Below, piece by piece: positions 6,602-46,713 of a stretch of DNA of 64,000 nucleotides. Each line of letters begins with the position of its first letter. Within the stretch, counting starts at the first letter, position 1. The position numbers were made by a program, and so were the translations under genes. The notes beneath the pieces are model-generated. The model was not told the origin of the DNA. It did no database searches and worked only from the letters and a program-made list of their open reading frames with translations. Origin of the DNA: Candidatus Omnitrophota bacterium (GTDB lineage: Bacteria; Omnitrophota; Gorgyraeia; Duberdicusellales; 4484-171); NCBI GenBank assembly GCA_028692655.1, contig JAQUWY010000001.1, positions 24,116 through 88,115 of the forward strand, read 5' to 3'.

Positions 6602-6928
6602 ATGGAAGAAAAAAAATTCACTGAGGTAGAAATTAAGGAAGGTGCGCCTTTTGCGGCATTGTCTTATGTGTTTTTTTTGTGGATACTGACTTTTATTTTC
6701 AAAAAAGACAATGCCTTTGCTTTATATCATGCCCGCCAGGGGATAGTGATATTTATAGGAGATGTAATCTGTTTGACATTTATGTTTATACCGATTATAG
6801 GCGTTTTGTTTGGGCTGCTGGCATTAATTTTAGCGGTAGTCCGTGTGTATGGAATTCTACTCTCACTTACCGGCAAGAGCGACAAAATTTATGTAATTAG
6901 TGATTTGGCAGAAAAATTAGTTGTATGA
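6602..6928 (+). CDS. small integral membrane protein (DUF4870-like)
   Basis: 108 aa, two or three hydrophobic helices. Motif ALSYVFF...ALYHARQG typical of DUF4870-type proteins. SD aaggaggg upstream. Confidence 0.5.
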   Translation: MEEKKFTEVEIKEGAPFAALSYVFFLWILTFIFKKDNAFALYHARQGIVIFIGDVICLTFMFIPIIGVLFGLLALILAVVRVYGILLSLTGKSDKIYVISDLAEKLVV

Positions 6929-6985
6929 GGCTGAGAAACCAAAAAACGAAAAAACAGAAAAACAAGAAAACGAAAAGCATAAAGC

Positions 6986-7369: not shown

Positions 7370-7493
7370 ATTTTATTTATGTTTTTCCTGTTTTTAAAGC
7401 TTTTAGTTTCTTAGTTTTTATGTTTTTGGGTTTTTCAGTTTTTATGTCGTTATATCAAAAAAGTACAATTCAACGAAGGAGAAGAGGTTAATT

Positions 7494-22371: not shown

Positions 22372-22815
22372 TAGTCGATAGTCCATAGTCCATAGATGAT
22401 AGGCTGTACAGGTTAAGGTTAAGGTTGAGGTTGAGAAAGACAGAAAAACCGAAAAACCAAAGAATCGAAAAACGGAAGAACTAAAAACTGAAAGACCAAA
22501 AAACCGAAGAACATAAAAACTAAAAGACTGAAAAACATAAAGAATAGGGAAGTTAAGACCTTGTCTACCGGCAGGCAGGCGCTAACCGAAAACCGAAAGA
22601 ATATTTCTTTAGTAGAAATACGATAGAAATATATGGAAATACATAGAAATAAATTGTTTTGAATTTTATTCATTTGAATTTGTTTAGGGATTAGAATTTC
22701 GGATTTAGTATTTGGTTGGTTAGTATTATTGGAATTTTTGATGTTCTGGCGCTCTGGTGACTAGTGTACTGGTGTTCTTAAAATATTTATTTAACGCGTA
22801 AGCATTCTGCGAATA

Positions 22816-22903
22816 GGAGAGGTCGCATAGCCCGGTCGAGTGCGCGTGTTTGGAGAACACGTATCCGCTTTGCGGATCCAGGGTTCGAATCCCTGCCTCT
22901 CCG
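22816..22903 (+). tRNA. tRNA-Ser (anticodon GGA)
   Basis: Acceptor GGAGAGG/CCTCTCC. Anticodon stem CGTGT/ACACG with loop TTGGAGA. Long variable arm ATCCGC-TTT-GCGGAT. T arm CAGGG-TTCGAAT-CCCTG. No encoded CCA. Confidence 0.8.
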
Positions 22904-30129: not shown

Positions 30130-30797
30130 CTTTGGTTTTATAACAAGCCGCATTCTTTAGATAACAATATAATGCTTCTGTTCCCGCCGGCCACAGTCCA
30201 CAGTCCACAGTCGATAGTCCACGGTCCACAGACTATAGGATATCCAGGATGAGGTTAAGGTTGAGAAAAACTAAAAAACCAAAAGACAAAAAAACAGAAA
30301 ACTAAAGAACTAAAAACAGAAAAACTGAAAGACCAAAAAACCGAAGAACATAAAAACTAAAAGATTGAAAAACATAAAGAATAGGGAAGTTAAGACCTTG
30401 CCTACCGGCAGGCAGGCGCTAACCGAAAAACGAAAGAACATTTCTTTAGCGGAAATACGGTAGAGATATATGGAAACAAATAGAAATAGATTGTTTGAAA
30501 AAATTCTTCGGGTCACAGGTCGCAAGCCACAGGTATCAGGTAACAGGTTATTTAAAATAACCAATAACCAAGCAACAAGAAACAAATAAATTACAATATT
30601 CAATAACCAAACAGAATGAAAAATCCAAAATCCAAATACTACCAAATCCCAAACAAATTCAAAATCCCAAATCCCAATTTTGGATTTGGTAATTGGGATT
30701 TATTTGGTAGTATTGGCATTATTGGAATTTGGGATTTTTAGCATTTTCGCTCTAACAACTTTGTTATTGAAGATAATGCGTAAGCATTCTGCGAATA

Positions 30798-30890
30798 GGA
30801 GGGGTGGCCGAGCTCGGTTTAAGGCGGCGGTTTGCTAAACCGTTGTACGGTCGAAAGTCCGTACCTGGGGTTCAAATCCCCACCCCTCCG
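30798..30890 (+). tRNA. tRNA-Ser (anticodon GCU)
   Basis: Acceptor GGAGGGG/CCCCTCC. Anticodon stem GCGGT/ACCGT with loop TTGCTAA. Long variable arm GTACGG-TCGAAAGT-CCGTAC. T arm TGGGG-TTCAAAT-CCCCA. CCA encoded at 30891-30893. Confidence 0.8.
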
Positions 30891-31092
30891 CCAATTTAAA
30901 CCTTTGGTTTAAATTGGCGGAGCAATCGATAATCGAAATTCGATTATAAGAGGTTATCGATTGCGGTCAAATTTTAACTATCGATTTTCAGAAAATTGTA
31001 ATCGCTATGCCGACGATTGTACCGAATGATCTAAGATAAACAAATTTCAACACACTGCCAAAAACACAGTGTTTAGTGTATAATAGGGTTAA

Positions 31093-38040: not shown

Positions 38041-38323
38041 AAGCGCTGCCTATTTAGAGCTTCCGCCAGAGGCGGATCAGCCTATGGCTGAACCGGGGAA
38101 TTCAATGAAACCGTGATTTTTAAGTATCTAGTAAAAATCGCTTGGTTGAATTAATTCCGACTGCTATCGGGAAAACTTGCTTAAAAGAGCACTAATCTGT
38201 GTAATCTTTTTCGAATCGGTGTAATCGAATATCTCATTAAGACTGCTAATTATAGCGTATTTGATAAAAAGCGTCAAGATTTTGATTTTTGTGGCCTAAA
38301 CCTGAGGAAAAGCTCTAGGAAAA

Positions 38324-38488
38324 CAGGAGAAAATTTACAAGAGAGAGTACAAAAATATCTCCTTGTAAATATTTAAAGAAAGTACTATAATTCCTTTTGT
38401 TACGGTTAAACGGATATCTATGCATTGGCAATATACCCAAATTATTTAAGTAAATCAAAGCGCTAGGAACACCTAGCGCTTTTTTTTG
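38324..38488 (+). repeat. promoter-leader-terminator module, copy A (candidate small RNA or attenuated leader)
   Basis: 126 nt identical to 41537-41662. Contains a perfect sigma70 promoter ttgtaa-17-tataat. Ends in hairpin gcgctagg...cctagcgc plus a T8 tract. Lies upstream of lipoprotein gene 38551. Confidence 0.6.
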
Positions 38489-38550
38489 TTTTTGGTGAGC
38501 TGATAAGCTAATCTTGTCTTTTCTTTTTACAATCAAGAATTTGGCTGAAA

Positions 38551-39099
38551 ATGAGAAATATTTTTATAGTTTTGCTTATCACGGTTTCATTAATAACATC
38601 AGGATGTACAGTACTTTTAGTTGGTGCCGCTGTGGGCTTAACAGCTCTAGCTGTAAAGAAAATGGCTTCCAATCCTTACGATTTAACAGAAGAGGAAAGA
38701 AAAAAAACAGAATATCGTGAAATAAAGGGAAACGAAAAAGATGTATTGTGTGCTGCGAAACAAGCATTAAAGAATATGGGATACGCAGTAAAAGAGACGT
38801 CAGTTGGGCAAATCAAGAATGTTGAACAATATAGGCAAGGAACGAATATAAGTTTTGGAAAAAGAGATGAAATTGCGACAAATAATAGAGTTGTGAAGAA
38901 GGGAAAAGACTTTTCGGAGGGGCTGATTGTTGGTGTCAGGCATGATCCATTTTTGCAGATAACGGCTGTTGTTAAAAAAACAGTGGCAGACCACGTCGGA
39001 TTGAGATTAATCGCTGAGAATGAGGAAGGGATAGTGGAAAACAAGCGGCTATATGAAGTATTGTTTGATAAAATTATGGAAGAGTTAAGAGAAACGTAA
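38551..39099 (+). CDS. hypothetical lipoprotein
   Basis: Lipobox LITSGC at residues 13-18. 182 aa. Confidence 0.5.
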   Translation: MRNIFIVLLITVSLITSGCTVLLVGAAVGLTALAVKKMASNPYDLTEEERKKTEYREIKGNEKDVLCAAKQALKNMGYAVKETSVGQIKNVEQYRQGTNISFGKRDEIATNNRVVKKGKDFSEGLIVGVRHDPFLQITAVVKKTVADHVGLRLIAENEEGIVENKRLYEVLFDKIMEELRET

Positions 39100-39101
39100 G
39101 A

Positions 39102-40430
39102 ATGGAGGCTGGCGTGACGAAAAAATCAGTTAAATTAATTTTGATAGTTTTGTTGTCAATGTCGTTGTTTGGTTGTGCTAGAGCGGTTAGAATCAAAAAT
39201 ATAACTAGAATGCCGGTAATTGTGCCCAAAAGCCAAGAAACAAAACCTGTAATGTTAAAAAAGGTTGTTATAAAGCTTAGCAGAGGCCAATTTATTGGAA
39301 GTGTTCAAGCTGGGATGTTTTGCATACCTCAAGCGCAGTTATTTTACAGACGTGGTAGATACAATGTGCCTGATGAAGAATATACCGAAATTTTGAATGA
39401 AGAGCTTGAAAAAAATGGATATACTGTTGTCGGGGACCCCACATCTCTTTGGGATGATGAAGAAGGTGATTGTGCAAATTTCCTAATAGGTGCACTCATA
39501 ACAGACATAAAGGCAAATGTATGTTATCCGAATTTAGGCTGGGGAGATTTCTTAACATCAAGTGGTGAAGCATATATGGAAATTGAGTGGCAAATTTATA
39601 GCCGTTTAACGCGAGATGTGGTGTTACGATTTAAGACAGAAGGAAGTTCAAAAACAAAAAATATGGAATATGGAAGTGATGAAGCGTTCTATCAAGCCTT
39701 TTCTGTGGCCACTAATAATATGCTAGCAGATAGAAACTTTTTTCAATTAGTTGCTTTACATCAGGATATTGGAGAGAAGGTAGATAAGAAAGAGTTAAAG
39801 CCTATACAGGTTAGTTATAAAAAAATGAATGAAAAGAATATCGGAGACTTTTCCGACAAGAACATGATTAAAAAAGCTAGAAATGCTGCCGTTACAATTT
39901 TTGCTGGGGATGGATGGGGATCTGGATTTTTAATATCCAATGATGGATACATTTTAACCAATGCGCATGTTGTGGGTGGTGCTAATTTTGTTCAGGTTAA
40001 GCTAGTTACTGGATCAGAAAGAACCGGTGAAGTTATTCGTAAAGACAAGAGAAGAGATGTTGCCCTCGTGAAGCTAGAAGCTGACCTATACCCGTATATT
40101 GTTTTGAGCGACAGCTCTCTTTTATCAATTAGCGATGAAGTTTTCGCTATTGGTACACCTAAGAAAGAAAAATATTCTAATACTGTTTCCAAGGGTATCG
40201 TTAGTAGCTTTCGAGTCGATGAAGGTATCAGATATATACAAAGTGATGTTACTGTACATCCAGGTAATTCAGGTGGTCCTCTAATTTCAGAAAAAAGTGG
40301 GGCTGTTGGAATAACGGTACAGGCATATCCCATTATTGCTGCTGGCAGGGACAGAGTTGGAATTGGTTTGAATTATTTTATTCCTGTCGAGGAAGCTTTA
40401 GACATATTGAAAATTAAAAAAGCAGAATAG
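39102..40430 (+). CDS. trypsin-like serine protease (S1 family) lipoprotein with ~230-aa N-terminal domain
   Basis: Lipobox LFGCARA. Catalytic-triad contexts TNAHVV (His), RDVAL (Asp) and GNSGGPL (Ser). Confidence 0.75.
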   Translation: MEAGVTKKSVKLILIVLLSMSLFGCARAVRIKNITRMPVIVPKSQETKPVMLKKVVIKLSRGQFIGSVQAGMFCIPQAQLFYRRGRYNVPDEEYTEILNEELEKNGYTVVGDPTSLWDDEEGDCANFLIGALITDIKANVCYPNLGWGDFLTSSGEAYMEIEWQIYSRLTRDVVLRFKTEGSSKTKNMEYGSDEAFYQAFSVATNNMLADRNFFQLVALHQDIGEKVDKKELKPIQVSYKKMNEKNIGDFSDKNMIKKARNAAVTIFAGDGWGSGFLISNDGYILTNAHVVGGANFVQVKLVTGSERTGEVIRKDKRRDVALVKLEADLYPYIVLSDSSLLSISDEVFAIGTPKKEKYSNTVSKGIVSSFRVDEGIRYIQSDVTVHPGNSGGPLISEKSGAVGITVQAYPIIAAGRDRVGIGLNYFIPVEEALDILKIKKAE

Positions 40431-40456
40431 AGACTCTTAATAATAAAAGGGACATA

Positions 40457-41530
40457 AAAGGGACGGAGTTAACTTAATAACTTATGGACATAGTTAATAC
40501 TTTCTGTAAAATGATTATATGCCAAGAAACAAACGATTAAACGTTATTGGCGGTGTATATCATGTATTTACTCGGGGAATAGAGCGTAAAGAGATATTTA
40601 AAGATTCAACCGACCGTGAAGAATTCTTATCCCGCCTTGCTGATACGCTAGATAAAACAAAATCAACCTGTTATGCCTGGGCATTGATGCCTAATCATGT
40701 TCATATTATGCTTCGTCCTGGCAAGAGAACCTTAACTGATATAGCCCGAAGAATATTCACCGGCTATGCTGTATATTTCAACATCAGACATAAACGTAGA
40801 GGGTATCTTTACCAGAACCGATATAAATCAATTCTTTGCCAAGAGGACATATATTTTGAAGAACTTATAAGATATATCCACTTAAACCCTTTAAAAGCTA
40901 AAATAGTATCAACAATCAGCCAATTAGATAAATACCCTTGGACTGGTCATTTTACAATAATGAGTAGTAAAAATTGTCCTTGGCAGAATATAGATGAAGT
41001 ATTGCTTCGCTTTTCGAAGAAAAAGGGAAAAGCGGTAGCTGCCTACAGAGATTTTATAAAAGAAGGCGTAGGCAAAAAGTCTATGGTAGACTTTTTAGGT
41101 GGCGGATTGATAAGAAGTGCCGGCGGCTGGAGCGAACTTGCTGCCATGAGGCGTAAAAAAGATTATTGGCGGGGAGACGAGAGAATACTAGGGGGCGATT
41201 CATTTGTTAATCAGGTATTGAATGAATACGAGGAGAAAATGGATCAAAAAGATAAGCTAAGGAGAGCGGGCTGGGATTTAACTAAGGTAATCCATAAGGT
41301 ATGTTGCGAATTGGCCATAAGTGAGGAAGACATCTACAAAAAAGGCAGAAACAATATATACTCAGAAGCCAAAGCCTTGATTTGTTACCTTGCCAATAAA
41401 AAGCTCGGTATCAGCGGAGCCCAAATAGCCAAAAGGCTTAGAATATCTCAACCGGCGGTAGCCAAGTATATGATTAAAGAGATTGTGAGGGAGAGGGGAA
41501 ATAAGTTATTAAGTTAACTCCGTCCCCTCC
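40457..41530 (+). mobile_element. IS element with ~25-bp terminal inverted repeats carrying an IS200-like (HUH/Y1) transposase gene
   Basis: Left end aagggacggagttaacttaataactta (40457-40483). Right end taagttattaagttaactccgtccc (41503-41527), a perfect inverted copy. Single ORF between them. Confidence 0.6.
40519..41517 (+). CDS. IS200-like / REP-associated tyrosine (HUH) transposase with C-terminal DnaA-domain-IV-like HTH
   Basis: GVYHVFTRG. HUH motif NHVHIML. YLYQNRY catalytic Tyr region. C-terminal ...AKALICYLANKKLGISGAQIAKRLRISQPAV resembles a DnaA C-terminal HTH. Confidence 0.7.
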   Translation: MPRNKRLNVIGGVYHVFTRGIERKEIFKDSTDREEFLSRLADTLDKTKSTCYAWALMPNHVHIMLRPGKRTLTDIARRIFTGYAVYFNIRHKRRGYLYQNRYKSILCQEDIYFEELIRYIHLNPLKAKIVSTISQLDKYPWTGHFTIMSSKNCPWQNIDEVLLRFSKKKGKAVAAYRDFIKEGVGKKSMVDFLGGGLIRSAGGWSELAAMRRKKDYWRGDERILGGDSFVNQVLNEYEEKMDQKDKLRRAGWDLTKVIHKVCCELAISEEDIYKKGRNNIYSEAKALICYLANKKLGISGAQIAKRLRISQPAVAKYMIKEIVRERGNKLLS

Positions 41531-41536
41531 TCCTCA

Positions 41537-41699
41537 CAGGAGAAAATTTACAAGAGAGAGTACAAAAATATCTCCTTGTAAATATTTAAAGAAAGTACTA
41601 TAATTCCTTTTGTTACGGTTAAACGGATATCTATGCATTGGCAATATACCCAAATTATTTAAAGAATTTAAAGCGCTAGGTGCCCCTAGCGCTTTTTTT
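41537..41699 (+). repeat. promoter-leader-terminator module, copy B
   Basis: Same 126-nt sequence as copy A, then a variant terminator hairpin gcgctagg-tgcc-cctagcgc plus a T tract. Lies upstream of lipoprotein operon 41750. Confidence 0.6.
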
Positions 41700-41749
41700 G
41701 CTTCGAGGTACTTTTTAAGGTTTTTTTATAGACATTAAAAGGAGGCAGG

Positions 41750-42154
41750 ATGAAGATATTCTATATAACTTTTGTTGCTCTAATGATTTTTAGTGGCTGT
41801 GCATCTGCTAGCAAGCATAGGCAGAATGTCCAAGATGATACCGGAGAGCGCATAACGGTTGGAAAGGTTCAACGAGAAATACGCGTAGGCATGCCATCAG
41901 CTCAGGTTGCTGAAATTCTGGGATCTCCAAATGTTGTGAGTACCGATGAAGAGAGGCGAGAAGTTTGGCTTTACGACAAAATTTCTACTGATGTCAGTTA
42001 TTCAAAAAGTGAAGCTGGCGCAGGACTCCTAATTATTGGCGGTAGTGGGGCTTCAGGAGCGCAATCAACATCACAGAGGACTCTGACAGTTATAATAAAA
42101 TTCGATAAAGATAATAAGGTTCGTGACTTTGCATATCATACATCACGATTTTAA
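41750..42154 (+). CDS. lipoprotein with BamE/SmpA-OmlA-like domain
   Basis: Lipobox IFSGCASA. GMPSAQVAEILGSPN resembles the BamE motif (GMT..QV...LGTP). Confidence 0.45.
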   Translation: MKIFYITFVALMIFSGCASASKHRQNVQDDTGERITVGKVQREIRVGMPSAQVAEILGSPNVVSTDEERREVWLYDKISTDVSYSKSEAGAGLLIIGGSGASGAQSTSQRTLTVIIKFDKDNKVRDFAYHTSRF

Positions 42155-42158
42155 AATA

Positions 42159-42713
42159 ATGTTGTTACGTGTCTCAAAATTACTCCCGTTAATTATTATC
42201 AGTTGTTTTTTGTCCGGGTGTGTTAGTGCTCCAAAAGGTTTTCTAAAGTTTCCTGAAACATATCTTGAAAAGCGGCAATTGCAAATACGGCAATATGATA
42301 CAACAGATGAAGAAAAAATTATTATTTCTGTAGCAGGAGTTTTGCAAGATTTAGGATTTATGCTTGATGATAGCGAAACAGAAGTGGGTTTGGTGGTTGC
42401 TTCAAAAAAAGCTGATGCTACTGACGGTGGGCAAATTGCAACTGCTTTTTTTATCGACTTGCTAGCCGCGTTGGGTGGTTCGTATTCAAACGCATCAGCC
42501 AATGTTGATGCTGTACAGCATGTTAAAGCCTCTGTAATTGTTAAACCTAGCCTTGAAGGTGGCAGAACTGTTGTTCGTGTGACTTTTCAGCGTATTGTTT
42601 GGAATGTCAGCAATAAAATTAATAGAGTGGAAACTGTAGACGAACCCGAGATTTACCAGAAGTTTTTTGATAGTCTATCAAAATCGATATTTTTGGAGGC
42701 ACATTCAATATGA
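42159..42713 (+). CDS. hypothetical lipoprotein (paralog family with 42710..43138)
   Basis: Lipobox FLSGCVSAP. Shares DTTDEE...QDLGF...YQKFFDSLSKSIFLEAH with the next ORF. Confidence 0.45.
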   Translation: MLLRVSKLLPLIIISCFLSGCVSAPKGFLKFPETYLEKRQLQIRQYDTTDEEKIIISVAGVLQDLGFMLDDSETEVGLVVASKKADATDGGQIATAFFIDLLAALGGSYSNASANVDAVQHVKASVIVKPSLEGGRTVVRVTFQRIVWNVSNKINRVETVDEPEIYQKFFDSLSKSIFLEAHSI

Positions 42714-43138
42714 ATAGACAGAGTAAAAAAATGTTTTTTACAATATTCTTAGTTGTTTTTCTTGCAGGTTGCGCTTCGACTTCACAAAAGGCATTTGTGA
42801 CTAACGAGAGCCAGGTTATGCTGAGAAGTATGCAGACGAGGGCATTTGATACAACAAATAAAAAAGCGATGATGCAAACAGTTATTAGCACAATGCAGGA
42901 TTTAGAATTTGTTATTGATAAAGCAGATTTTATGCTTGGGTCGGTGACCGGTACAAAATTTTTAGGATATGCCGTTATAAAAATGACAGTAACGATTAGG
43001 CCTCGAGGAAAGACTCAATTATTAGTAAGAGCAAACGCTCAGCATGGGATAAATTCTATTAATGATGCCGAAACCTATCAAGATTTCTTTACCGCTTTAG
43101 GAAAGTCATTATTTCTTACAGCTCACCAAGTGGATTAG
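42710..43138 (+). CDS. hypothetical lipoprotein (paralog of 42159..42713)
   Basis: Lipobox FLAGCAST. C-terminal YQDFFTALGKSLFLTAH. Overlaps the upstream stop. Confidence 0.45.
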   Translation: MNRQSKKMFFTIFLVVFLAGCASTSQKAFVTNESQVMLRSMQTRAFDTTNKKAMMQTVISTMQDLEFVIDKADFMLGSVTGTKFLGYAVIKMTVTIRPRGKTQLLVRANAQHGINSINDAETYQDFFTALGKSLFLTAHQVD

Positions 43139-44240: not shown

Positions 44241-44288
44241 AAAAAAGTAAAACCTTCACTGGAAACGGTGAGGGATTTTTTATTTTAT
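44241..44288 (+). terminator. intrinsic terminator, copy 1 of a 44-bp duplicated sequence
   Basis: aaaaaagtaaaaccttcactggaaacggtgagggattttttatttta. Repeated at 44893-44942. Confidence 0.55.
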
Positions 44289-44904
44289 GGAAATGAAACA
44301 AAAATATTGGTTATTTAATGTTTTGTTTTTATTGTTTTTTGCTAACGCAATAGCATCGGAAGTTAATCCTTCGGCAAAGCCTAAGATTTATGTTAGTACG
44401 CATAGAGGGATAGATTATTATCATATGAAATATACACTGACTCCCGATAATGTAGAATTAACCTTGCCTACTTATCATAAATATGGACCTAGCGAATATT
44501 TCTTTGAATATGGAAACTTTCAACTATTTATTCCCAAGGAAAAATTTCCCATCTCAGCGCCTAATTGCAACACGCATATTATTTTACGTATGCCTATGAC
44601 AATGGGCGATGTTTTTGCGAAAAGGTATTACACTTCTGAACAAGAGCGCTATATTGCAGAGAAAAGAGCTGTTTACGACAAAATTAAACAAATAAAGGAA
44701 TCAGGCAGGGGCGAGTTAGAGGTAGTGGTTGAGTTAAACCCGTATGTGAAAGTAAAGCAAGAGGAGCCGTTAGAGGTTGAATTAGAGTGGTGCAATGTTT
44801 TTTTCAGAGATGCTTATGGTCAATATATTGATTATGTGGGTCCGTTAAAATGGACAATTCCGCGGATAAATAAAAAGTTGTTTAAACGTCTTGAGAAAAA
44901 GTAA
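44287..44904 (+). CDS. hypothetical secreted protein
   Basis: 205 aa with signal peptide ending ANAIA|SE. Bounded on both sides by the duplicated terminator sequence. Confidence 0.4.
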   Translation: MEMKQKYWLFNVLFLLFFANAIASEVNPSAKPKIYVSTHRGIDYYHMKYTLTPDNVELTLPTYHKYGPSEYFFEYGNFQLFIPKEKFPISAPNCNTHIILRMPMTMGDVFAKRYYTSEQERYIAEKRAVYDKIKQIKESGRGELEVVVELNPYVKVKQEEPLEVELEWCNVFFRDAYGQYIDYVGPLKWTIPRINKKLFKRLEKK

Positions 44905-44942
44905 AACCTTCACTGGAAATGGTGAGGGATTTTTATTTTAAG
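44893..44942 (+). terminator. intrinsic terminator, copy 2 of the 44-bp duplicated sequence
   Basis: aaaaagtaaaaccttcactggaaatggtgagggatttttatttta. Its stop codon taa is embedded in the repeat. Confidence 0.55.
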
Positions 44943-45423: not shown

Positions 45424-46713
45424 ATGAAAACGATGCATAAAATTATCATTGGTGATTCGCGAAAGATGAAGGAGCTTTCTGATGAAAGCATCCATATAGT
45501 TGTAACTTCTCCGCCATATTGGCAACTGAAAGATTACGGAGTTAAAGATCAAATAGGATTTAATGATAGTTATGAGAGCTACATCAATAACCTTAATTTA
45601 GTCTGGAAAGAATGCCATAGGGTTTTACATAAAGGTTGTCGTTTATGCGTCAACATTGGAGATCAATTCGCACGTTCAGTTTACTATGGAAGATATAAGA
45701 TTATTCCTATCCGAACGGAGATTATTAGGTTTTGCGAAACGATCGGGTTTGATTATATGGGCGCTATAATCTGGCAAAAAGTAACTACCTGCAATACTAC
45801 AGGTGGTGCGACAATAATGGGTTCATTTCCTTACCCCCGGAATGGGATTTTAAAGTTAGATTACGAATTTATTCTGTTATTTAAAAAACCAGGCATTTCT
45901 CCACGACCATTTAGAGAGATTAGAGAACGCTCAAAGATGACAACTGAGGAATGGAATAAGTATTTTGCTGGACATTGGCAATTTACCGGAGAAAGACAGA
46001 ATAAGCATTTGGCAATGTTTCCGGAGGAATTACCTAAACGTCTTTTAAGAATGTTTACTTTTGTCGGCGATACGGTATTAGACCCTTTCCTAGGGAGCGG
46101 TACGACTTCTTTGGCAGCAAGGAATTTAGAAAGAAACTCTGTCGGATACGAGATAAATAAAGATTTTTTGTCTGTTATAAAATCAAAACTCGGAATGAAG
46201 CAGCACAATTTTTTTCATACGCATAATTTCGAAGTTATACAACAAGAAAAAATAGCGAATAATTTAACCGAGGAAATTAATAAATTGCCTTATGTTTTTA
46301 AGGATCCAATAAAATTTGATAAAAAAGTTGATCCTAGAAAGTTGCAGTTTGGTTCAAGAATCGATAAAAATAGTGGGGAGCGACACCAATCCTTTGTTGT
46401 AAAGGAAGTTATTAGCCCCGAATTACTAAAACTCAACAATGGTCTTACTATACGACTTCTAGGCATCAAGCAGAACCTTGACAAAAATGGAAAAGCTACT
46501 CAGTTTTTGAGCGATAAGGTTAAGGGAACAAGAGTTTTTCTTAAATACGATAAAGCAAAACATGATGAAAAAAATAACCTGCTTTGTTACCTTTATTTAC
46601 AAAATAAGACTTTTGTGAATGCACATCTAGTAAAAAATAACCTAGTGGACGTTGATGCAGCAACGGATTATAGATATAAGACAAAATTTTTATCTTTGGC
46701 AGGAGCTAAATAA
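45424..46713 (+). CDS. DNA methyltransferase, beta-class amino-MTase (N4-C or N6-A)
   Basis: Motif IV SPPYW precedes motif I DPFLGSGTT, the beta-class permutation. About 150-aa C-terminal extension. Confidence 0.8.
   Translation: MKTMHKIIIGDSRKMKELSDESIHIVVTSPPYWQLKDYGVKDQIGFNDSYESYINNLNLVWKECHRVLHKGCRLCVNIGDQFARSVYYGRYKIIPIRTEIIRFCETIGFDYMGAIIWQKVTTCNTTGGATIMGSFPYPRNGILKLDYEFILLFKKPGISPRPFREIRERSKMTTEEWNKYFAGHWQFTGERQNKHLAMFPEELPKRLLRMFTFVGDTVLDPFLGSGTTSLAARNLERNSVGYEINKDFLSVIKSKLGMKQHNFFHTHNFEVIQQEKIANNLTEEINKLPYVFKDPIKFDKKVDPRKLQFGSRIDKNSGERHQSFVVKEVISPELLKLNNGLTIRLLGIKQNLDKNGKATQFLSDKVKGTRVFLKYDKAKHDEKNNLLCYLYLQNKTFVNAHLVKNNLVDVDAATDYRYKTKFLSLAGAK

Follow-up and report, generated by a model that had tools for sequence, protein, structure and literature searches.

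A duplicated promoter-leader-terminator module upstream of two lipoprotein operons in a Candidatus Omnitrophota bacterium

A 164-nt direct repeat, here called R, occurs in a 64,000-nt stretch of DNA from a Candidatus Omnitrophota bacterium (assembly GCA_028692655.1, contig JAQUWY010000001.1, positions 24,116 to 88,115; referred to below as the window), and each of its copies lies upstream of a lipoprotein operon. The two copies, R1 (38323-38486) and R2 (41536-41699), were found by a repeat search of the window, share 96% identity and are spaced 3213 nt apart. R appears to be a lineage-specific module made up of an operator-like inverted repeat, a sigma-70 promoter, an unstructured leader of about 58 nt and a strong intrinsic terminator. 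The two envelope operons that it would serve are unrelated: one is an accessory pair of genes for a lipoprotein and an S1 protease, and the other is a conserved operon of three lipoprotein genes, the first of them BamE-like. The reading that we favour, at about even confidence, regards R as a promoter-leader cassette that has been reused and whose leader terminator is leaky or under the control of a factor. As the copies share operator, promoter and leader, both operons would be placed under one control region. RNA polymerase would start near G38399 in R1 and G41612 in R2, most transcripts would stop at the hairpin and U-run to give a leader RNA of about 89 nt, and the fraction reading through would be the sole visible source of operon mRNA. 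This fraction may be constitutive or may be set by a trans-acting factor, because the leader has no antiterminator of its own.

The repeat and the distribution of its differences

Pairwise alignment and base-by-base comparison of the copies delimit an identical core of 127 nt (38323-38449 and 41536-41662). This is one base longer than the 126-nt identical sequence, present in two copies, that was given in a preliminary description of the window, whose observation as a whole is confirmed. Beyond the core the copies differ at 7 positions within the 164 nt, 4 in the 7 nt before the terminator hairpin and 3 in its 4-nt loop. Two extra differences, at 38487 and 38488, lie just outside the end of R, at the ends of the T-runs, and after the T-runs the similarity between the copies ends. 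Relative to the start codons of the downstream operons, R1 spans -228 to -65 (ATG at 38551) and R2 spans -214 to -51 (ATG at 41750). In the window, exactly two matches each were obtained with a 43-nt probe, for which up to 3 mismatches were allowed, and with the hairpin pattern; shuffled sequence gave none.

The differences are not randomly placed. All 7 are confined to the last 37 of the 164 nt (P = 3e-5), and within these 37 nt they all fall among the 11 non-stem positions (P = C(11,7)/C(37,7) = 3.2e-5). Accordingly, 7 of the 11 loop and flank positions differ, compared with none of the 22 stem positions and none of the 127 core positions. With the stem invariant, the loop and flank scrambled and the core untouched, this pattern cannot have been produced by a single recent duplication. 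It suggests that the hairpin is under selection, its stem having been kept while the loop and the pre-stem flank were effectively randomised. The history that we propose would begin with an older duplication, after which the terminators diverged in loop and flank alone under selection on the hairpin. A recent ectopic gene conversion or re-duplication would then have made the first 127 nt identical, and at the BamE-like operon the module would have replaced an ancestral short-leader promoter.

Searches with both copies by blastn-short and nhmmer against 90 loci, mostly from Omnitrophota and related uncultured lineages, matched the source organism's own contigs alone. In all, more than 100 related loci yielded no homologue of R. 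R had no match among plasmids and phages (blastn, distant mode), and a 20-mer from the leader had none in IMG/VR. The sole match of this 20-mer in the JGI metagenomes (L094) lies inside an open reading frame (ORF), has no flanking similarity and was judged to be due to chance. In a comparison of PhoH/RecR synteny among 80 related loci, made in search of an empty site of the form A-R-operon, gene order is not kept beyond RecR-PhoH and is therefore uninformative; the nearest PhoH relatives, mostly from Omnitrophota metagenome-assembled genomes (MAGs), are at most 76% identical.

Promoter, leader and terminator

The predicted promoter TTGTAA-17-TATAAT, which the preliminary description called perfect, is present in both copies, but its perfection is confined to the -10 hexamer, the -35 hexamer agreeing with the consensus at 4 of 6 positions. 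The inverted repeat overlapping the -35 hexamer may act as an operator; the pattern TTTACAAG-N15-25-CTTGTAAA occurs twice in the window, where 0.01 occurrences are expected. In a consensus scan, the sequence from each terminator to the start codon of the first operon gene contained no further promoter candidate, so that expression of the operons appears to need read-through of the terminator. Downstream of the R1 terminator a regular-expression scan gave the poor match TTGTTT-17-TAATCT alone, and no sigma-E-like or sigma-54-like motif was seen after the terminators by eye, without a formal test.

The terminator hairpin has 11 bp, of which 6 are G-C pairs, and a 4-nt loop, and its stem is identical in both copies. 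With a G+C-rich stem, a short loop and a run of 7 or 8 U residues, it is predicted to be active as an intrinsic (Rho-independent) terminator. The earlier placement of such a terminator about 90 nt after the promoter and upstream of the lipoprotein operons holds for both copies, with the amendment that the T8 given for it belongs to copy 1 and copy 2 has T7. The left-hand neighbours of R1, all on the minus strand, are a GIY-YIG gene, a tRNA gene and, from 38277 to 38249, a promoter-like site. R1 thus stands in a divergent intergenic region upstream of which no plus-strand gene ends, and its terminator therefore cannot serve an upstream gene.

When the 3' arm of the terminator is withheld, the best folds of the leader reach -4.3 kcal/mol in R1 and -8.0 kcal/mol in R2. 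These are weaker than the folds of shuffled upstream controls (-9.0 and -10.6 kcal/mol) and far weaker than the terminator. In neither copy did this folding yield a stable antiterminator that could compete with the terminator, and the alternative structure that the preliminary description had suggested looking for was thus not found. A search of Rfam, at gathering thresholds over the whole window and at E <= 10 over 38100-38600, returned no relevant family and no aptamer, the best match being VqmR on the opposite strand with 23.7 bits against a gathering score of 76. A 9-codon ORF in the leader (MHWQYTQII, 38420-38449) ends exactly at the end of the 127-nt identity. It was considered as a leader peptide and taken as a chance ORF, as its Shine-Dalgarno (SD) sequence is weak (GGA) and its stop codon lies 10 nt before the G-C core of the hairpin, too far to block the stem. 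Minus-strand ORFs of 73 amino acids across R1 and 39 amino acids across R2 were also taken as chance, with no SD sequence, no conservation and ends that differ between the copies. A proposed anti-SD pairing of UCCUUUU with the SD sequence of the BamE-like gene was dropped because this stretch lies 5' of the likely start site.

A possible, though rather doubtful, alternative is that the two copies are stand-alone sibling genes for small RNAs, each producing a trans-acting RNA of about 89 nt whose parts would be a seed region free of structure, a stretch rich in A and U, a G+C-rich terminator hairpin and a long tail of U residues, and that the operons use other signals or incidental read-through. 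The promoter-like site and the strong terminator delimit a self-contained unit, about 90 nt from one to the other, whose motifs and length of about 89 nt fit those of a small-RNA unit (promoter and terminator, 50-300 nt). The 5' part of about 58 nt is less structured than shuffled sequences, as expected of a pairing region, the U tail of 7-8 nt is long and the terminator stem seems to be under selection in both copies. Two copies with 96% identity also resemble the sibling small RNAs PrrF1/PrrF2 and OmrA/OmrB, with which R shares the arrangement of two near-identical units of about 90 nt, each with its own promoter, Rho-independent terminator and long U tail, close together in the genome and beside envelope-related genes. 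In contrast to these RNAs, R has neither an Rfam family nor a homologue in the relatives and public collections searched, and no target signal is seen: against 70 translation-initiation regions, all within the window, the best leader duplex reaches -22.8 kcal/mol, compared with a mean of -24.8 kcal/mol for shuffled RNAs. Moreover, no promoter other than that in R is visible for either operon, so that the unit is not purely independent of the operons.

The cassette and the stand-alone small RNA are not mutually exclusive, since a leader RNA that ends at the terminator can have effects in trans as well. The preliminary description had offered a choice between a small RNA and a conditional attenuator. 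Its anatomy of R stands (a promoter-like site, about 90 nt, a strong terminator, lipoprotein operons and bracketing repeats), whereas the choice itself is not settled by the sequence: the proposal is partly supported, with neither alternative borne out in its classical sense. It is also conceivable, if improbable, that the terminated leader of about 89 nt, made from two loci, functions as a small RNA, and that an envelope-stress factor governs read-through by way of the unstructured leader or of the operator common to both copies. In that case R would be a portable unit of small RNA and gated promoter that recruits new envelope genes into an existing regulon, the first riboregulatory element of this type to be put forward for Omnitrophota; a full-text literature search gave no study of small RNAs in Omnitrophota among its top-ranked papers.

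Several observations weigh against the favoured cassette. None of the other genomes searched carries R, and there is consequently no comparative or covariation support for it; within the 64-kb window the copy number is two. The stem contains not a single compensatory pair, so that its invariance would also fit a site recognised by its sequence rather than an RNA hairpin, and the palindrome is open to the reading that a protein may recognise it as DNA. The promoter motif, a 10/12 match to the consensus, belongs to a class that occurs at chance frequency in this AT-rich region, with 23 promoter-like motifs found and 19.6 expected. The leader holds no antiterminator, aptamer or credible leader peptide, and any regulation of read-through is therefore hypothetical. 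By the rules established for Escherichia coli the terminator looks efficient, and read-through is perhaps too low for the operon; a promoter of an unrecognised type may lie 3' of the hairpin.

Promoters of relatives, a probable promoter replacement and likeness to known systems

Homologues of the BamE-like gene number 4140, with many in Omnitrophota, and the three genes of its operon stay together in every relative fetched. The 184- and 142-amino-acid lipoproteins of this operon are paralogues. Promoters were compared in the upstream regions of seven distinct lineages with 75-88% protein identity. Six of the seven possess a near-consensus sigma-70 promoter (TTTACA, TTGCTA or TTGACT; 16-17 nt; TATAAT or TACAAT) with its -10 hexamer about 45-60 nt before the ATG, and have no leader hairpin or terminator. 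Three pairs of the relatives' promoter regions were tested, and in each pair the two regions align (z = 7 to 57), but none of the seven aligns with R (z <= 2.5). Between the window and its closest relative, the similarity that is left consists of an A/T-rich stretch of about 29 nt between terminator and ATG and, by eye, the ribosome-binding region. Because the promoters of the relatives align with each other and not with R, R2 would have replaced the ancestral promoter, leaving the operon behind a terminator, and the module looks like a lineage-specific promoter replacement at the BamE-like operon. As this operon is conserved and presumably needed, the terminator would have to be read through at least partly.

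In one Omnitrophota lineage (L091 170-318; also L092 and L093), the orthologous BamE-like operon is preceded by TTGACT-16-TATAAT, a leader of about 95 nt and an 11-bp hairpin with T6 located right before the SD sequence. This module has no sequence similarity to R; this lineage thus possesses a promoter, leader and hairpin independently, and the architecture recurs whereas the sequence does not.

R has every property by which putative mobile promoters (PMPs) were defined operationally by Matus-Garcia, Nijveen and van Passel (2012, Nucleic Acids Research; PMC3488235), namely sequences longer than 50 nt, with at least 80% identity, located about 50-150 nt 5' of start codons, with non-homologous genes downstream and unrelated genes upstream in one genome. 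R extends over 164 nt at 96% identity in two upstream regions, and the first genes downstream, for the 182-amino-acid lipoprotein and the BamE-like protein of 134 amino acids, are not homologous (BLASTP E = 0.19); for the 182-amino-acid lipoprotein against the profile of the 184/142-amino-acid family, hhalign gives a probability of 0.9%. Upstream, R1 is preceded by a GIY-YIG gene on the opposite strand and R2 by a Y1_Tnp gene, and R is not a terminal repeat of a multi-copy transposase. As with PMPs, a near-identical non-coding sequence stands upstream of non-homologous genes in a two-member family; such families have been attributed to duplication by homologous or non-homologous recombination (PMC3488235). 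R differs from PMPs in that it includes, besides a complete promoter, a strong intrinsic terminator before the genes, shows a mosaic divergence, its 127-nt core being identical and its terminator loop and flank having diverged, and would replace an ancestral promoter documented in relatives.

Conditional terminators and attenuators in 5' leaders, together with leader-derived small RNAs, are known from trp-type attenuators, from SreA and SreB of Listeria, which are leaders terminated by riboswitches and active in trans, and from rnTrpL. R has in common with them the order of promoter, short leader, intrinsic terminator and operon, and its default product is predicted to be a short terminated RNA. 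It differs from them in lacking an antiterminator, an aptamer match and a credible leader peptide, and in that its leader is not conserved in the orthologous operons of the seven lineages, six of which are without a leader terminator.

If the favoured reading is right, R is a case from nature, in an uncultured phylum, of regulation rewired through the reuse of a promoter, and the relatives document the state before the change. The ancestral promoter of a conserved envelope operon would have been replaced, and an acquired pair of lipoprotein and protease genes would have come under the same control. The 164-nt cassette could also reveal by what means transcription gets past a strong leader terminator when no RNA switch is present. 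To a specialist such reuse is not surprising, since duplicated 5' regions have already been catalogued by the thousand, and the presence of other duplicated intergenic modules in the window (see below), which indicates that copying of regulatory DNA is habitual in this genome, argues for an ordinary explanation. R may thus be regarded as a real but fairly ordinary case of promoter reuse.

The bracketed block and its surroundings

The features discussed are listed in Table 1. The two copies of R bracket the lipoprotein, S1 protease and transposase genes as direct repeats, a geometry that had been correctly described and that includes the exact repeat of 127 nt. The core thereby marks a 3.2-kb segment open to loss or amplification by homologous recombination. 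A deleted or circular form was not seen, and would be visible only in reads.

Table 1. Positions of R, its predicted elements and the adjoining genes in the window
Feature	Position	Strand	Remarks
R1 (copy 1): operator-like inverted repeat, promoter, leader, terminator	38323..38490	+	divergent intergenic region, 5' of the 182-aa lipoprotein gene
R2 (copy 2)	41536..41702	+	starts 9 nt past the right inverted repeat of the transposase unit; 5' of the BamE-like lipoprotein operon
Differences before the stem	38450, 38451, 38454, 38456		copy-1 coordinates
Differences in the loop	38468, 38469, 38471		copy-1 coordinates
Candidate operator, inverted repeat AAAATTTACAAG - 20 nt - CTTGTAAATATT	38330..38373; copy 2 41543-41586	.	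12-nt arms, 92% complementary; overlaps the -35
Sigma-70-like promoter TTGTAA-17-TATAAT	copy 1 38363-38391; copy 2 41576-41604	+	10/12 consensus match
Predicted terminated leader RNA, about 89 nt	copy 1 38399..~38487; copy 2 41612..~41699	+	poorly structured 5' part of about 58 nt, then hairpin and U tail
Predicted intrinsic terminator hairpin, copy 1: AAAGCGCTAGG-AACA-CCTAGCGCTTT, then T8	38457..38482; T run ends 38487	+	-16.9 kcal/mol
Predicted intrinsic terminator hairpin, copy 2: AAAGCGCTAGG-TGCC-CCTAGCGCTTT, then T7	41670..41695; T run ends 41699	+	-16.8 kcal/mol
182-aa lipoprotein, first gene after copy 1	38551..39099	+	no Pfam match
S1 (trypsin-like, S1C) serine protease lipoprotein, 442 aa	39102..40430	+	Trypsin_2, E = 1.3e-30
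Insertion sequence-like unit, about 1.07 kb	40460..41526	+	Y1_Tnp gene with a DnaA_C-like helix-turn-helix (40519-41517, 332 aa) between inverted repeats
Three-gene lipoprotein operon after copy 2	41750..43138	+	BamE-like 134 aa, 41750-42154; 184 aa, 42159-42713; 142 aa, 42710-43138

The genes of this region are also carried by a second assembly, GCA_028715335.1 (a Candidatus Omnitrophota MAG), and by the Logan assemblies of SRR22315505 and SRR22315506, as found by exact-protein look-up. Contig JAQUSC010000049 contains the upstream genes, copy 1 and the lipoprotein, protease and transposase genes, and breaks off within copy 2, at repeat position 127; the first base of JAQUSC010000014 is position 1 of copy 2, and a public contig (L003) begins exactly at 41536. 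Such contig breaks are the signature of a genuine exact repeat of 127 nt in a k = 127 graph, and the breaks that short-read assemblies of this organism show here are explained by the identical core. The junction of upstream flank, copy 1 and block is independently supported, and an assembly artefact peculiar to this window does not account for the repeat. For the protease, the transposase and the BamE-like protein, the longest contig listed is in each case one of 145,055 nt, suggesting that one contig carries all three genes.

It is most improbable that the arrangement arose as an artefact during assembly or stems from heterogeneity within the population, with the block circular or located elsewhere and the chromosome of the form A-R-operon, a situation for which the de Bruijn graph would be identical. 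Short-read assemblies do break at the repeat, and a Logan contig of 3243 nt corresponds to the 3213-nt unit plus 30 nt of overlap, as expected of a repeat-bounded or circular path. Against this, an independent metaSPAdes-style contig (L001) joins the upstream flank, by way of copy 1, to the block, the longest contig of 145,055 nt listed for proteins on both sides of copy 2 suggests that one contig links block and operon, and the distinct 3' tails of the copies are each continuous with their own downstream genes in separate assemblies.

Within the block, the model of the protease at NCBI has 438 amino acids, which would fit a start at GTG 39114. The lipoboxes of the lipoproteins downstream of R read SGC, FGC or AGC. 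The nearest homologue of the S1 protease is 61% identical and its family is taxonomically patchy, and the pair of lipoprotein and protease genes looks accessory. A pair of small-lipoprotein and S1 protease genes recurs as a unit in L095 and L096. The 182-amino-acid lipoprotein was considered as a paralogue of the 184- and 142-amino-acid lipoproteins, derived from an old tandem duplication, which would cover the whole region. A pairwise BLASTP match (E = 0.002) was weakly suggestive, and profile comparison rejected the idea (hhalign probability 0.9%).

The accessory look of the block bears on another explanation, which we regard as unlikely: R could be a functionless recombination scar whose duplication went with the insertion or rearrangement of the 3.2-kb block, segmental duplication or Campbell-type integration at a common sequence being conceivable routes, and the motifs of one or both copies would be passengers. 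Apart from the patchy protease, a mobile-element gene stands at the right end of the block, 9 nt from R2, promoter-like motifs are common by chance in this DNA, and a similar geometry is seen at 44242-44285 and 44896-44939, where a 44-nt terminator repeat surrounds one gene. One recent event should, however, have given uniform identity along R instead of the sharp steps between core, flank and stem. The base composition of the block is not distinct from its surroundings, and the BamE-like operon, its ancestral promoter lost, has no promoter candidate except that in R, so that at least R2 would be needed.

The 44-nt repeat just mentioned consists of a terminator-like hairpin with a T-run, has 93% identity and is located before and at the end of a gene for 205 amino acids (44287-44904); its geometry is a smaller-scale version of the bracketing by R. 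A further repeat of about 216-270 nt with 88% identity (22444-22659 and 30281-30496) lies 150-300 nt 5' of both tRNA-Ser genes (GGA at 22816-22903 and GCT at 30798-30893). It is largely composed of A-rich units with an 8-nt period, and related arrays are found at 6923-6984 and 7382-7452, one of them inverted. An identical stretch of about 23 nt, GCGTAAGCATTCTGCGAATAGGAG, is located directly 5' of both tRNA-Ser genes.

The transposase unit next to R2 possesses perfect terminal inverted repeats of 26 nt (40460-40485 and 41501-41526), which are not typical of the IS200/IS605 group. The transposase family is large, with at least 7990 matches, many on contigs of about 1.1-2 kb, and its nearest member is 71% identical. 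A homologue with 67% identity from another metagenome (P0128; L098 925-1998) lies between the arms of a perfect 24-nt inverted repeat that shares the GGGGACGGAGTTAAC core, and the core GGGACGGAGTTAAC of the terminal inverted repeats is conserved in this other context. The homologue is found on Logan contigs of 1079 and 1148 nt, which consist of approximately the unit from one inverted repeat to the other and little else. R-like sequence was absent from the fetched loci homologous to the transposase (blastn; the flanks in L098 were also read). R was therefore rejected as an end of the neighbouring element, the family having its own conserved inverted repeats and forming a separate unit of about 1.07 kb.

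IS200/IS605-type Y1 transposases act on hairpins in direct orientation at both ends of the element. It could accordingly be supposed that R or its hairpin is part of a mobile element, either as an end or substrate of the Y1 (HUH) transposase or as a repeat carrying a promoter, similar to a miniature inverted-repeat transposable element or a repetitive extragenic palindrome (REP). The invariant stem sequence and the distance of 9 nt between R2 and the transposase unit are in favour of this view, and a Y1_Tnp gene adjoining copy 2 is what R has in common with IS200/IS605 elements and REP-associated tyrosine transposases (RAYTs). It is nevertheless very unlikely, given the separate inverted repeats of the transposase unit and their conservation, the absence of R from homologous loci, the mere two copies of R and its hairpin in 64 kb and the lack of matches in the plasmid, phage, IMG/VR and JGI collections. 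Some members of the transposase family are labelled RayT by JGI; no further copies of its inverted repeat occur in the window. In L095 (7506-11076) and in L096, from a distant relative, Y1_Tnp genes are found within about 550 nt 3' of the lipoprotein-protease pair, whose protease is 60% identical. They belong to a different subfamily (33% identity), comprise two ORFs of 190 and 204 amino acids and have REP-like repeats containing GGGAC nearby. This association could be due to chance or to recurrent linkage.

About 2 kb 3' of the BamE-like operon, a gene for an N6_N4 methyltransferase is followed by a gene of the RE_MjaI family, forming a restriction-modification pair (45424-46713 and downstream; L003 3889-5810). 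Strain variants near this pair (L004 and L005) have a methyltransferase of 426 versus 429 amino acids and a neighbouring gene for 247 versus 234 amino acids.

To the left of R1, the tRNA-Asn(GUU) gene (37805-37501, minus strand) contains a group I intron of 232 nt (37770-37539; Rfam RF00028, 82.7 bits) between anticodon positions 35 and 36. ARAGORN missed this tRNA on the raw sequence and called tRNA-Asn(gtt) once the intron had been removed in silico. The 35/36 site in tRNA-Asn has been found to be enriched in Patescibacteria and rare in other phyla (2026; PMC13011429); the present case is from Omnitrophota. The GIY-YIG ORF (38040-37768) is located 5' of tRNA-Asn and outside the intron, and its last 11 codons are formed by the 5' half of the tRNA.

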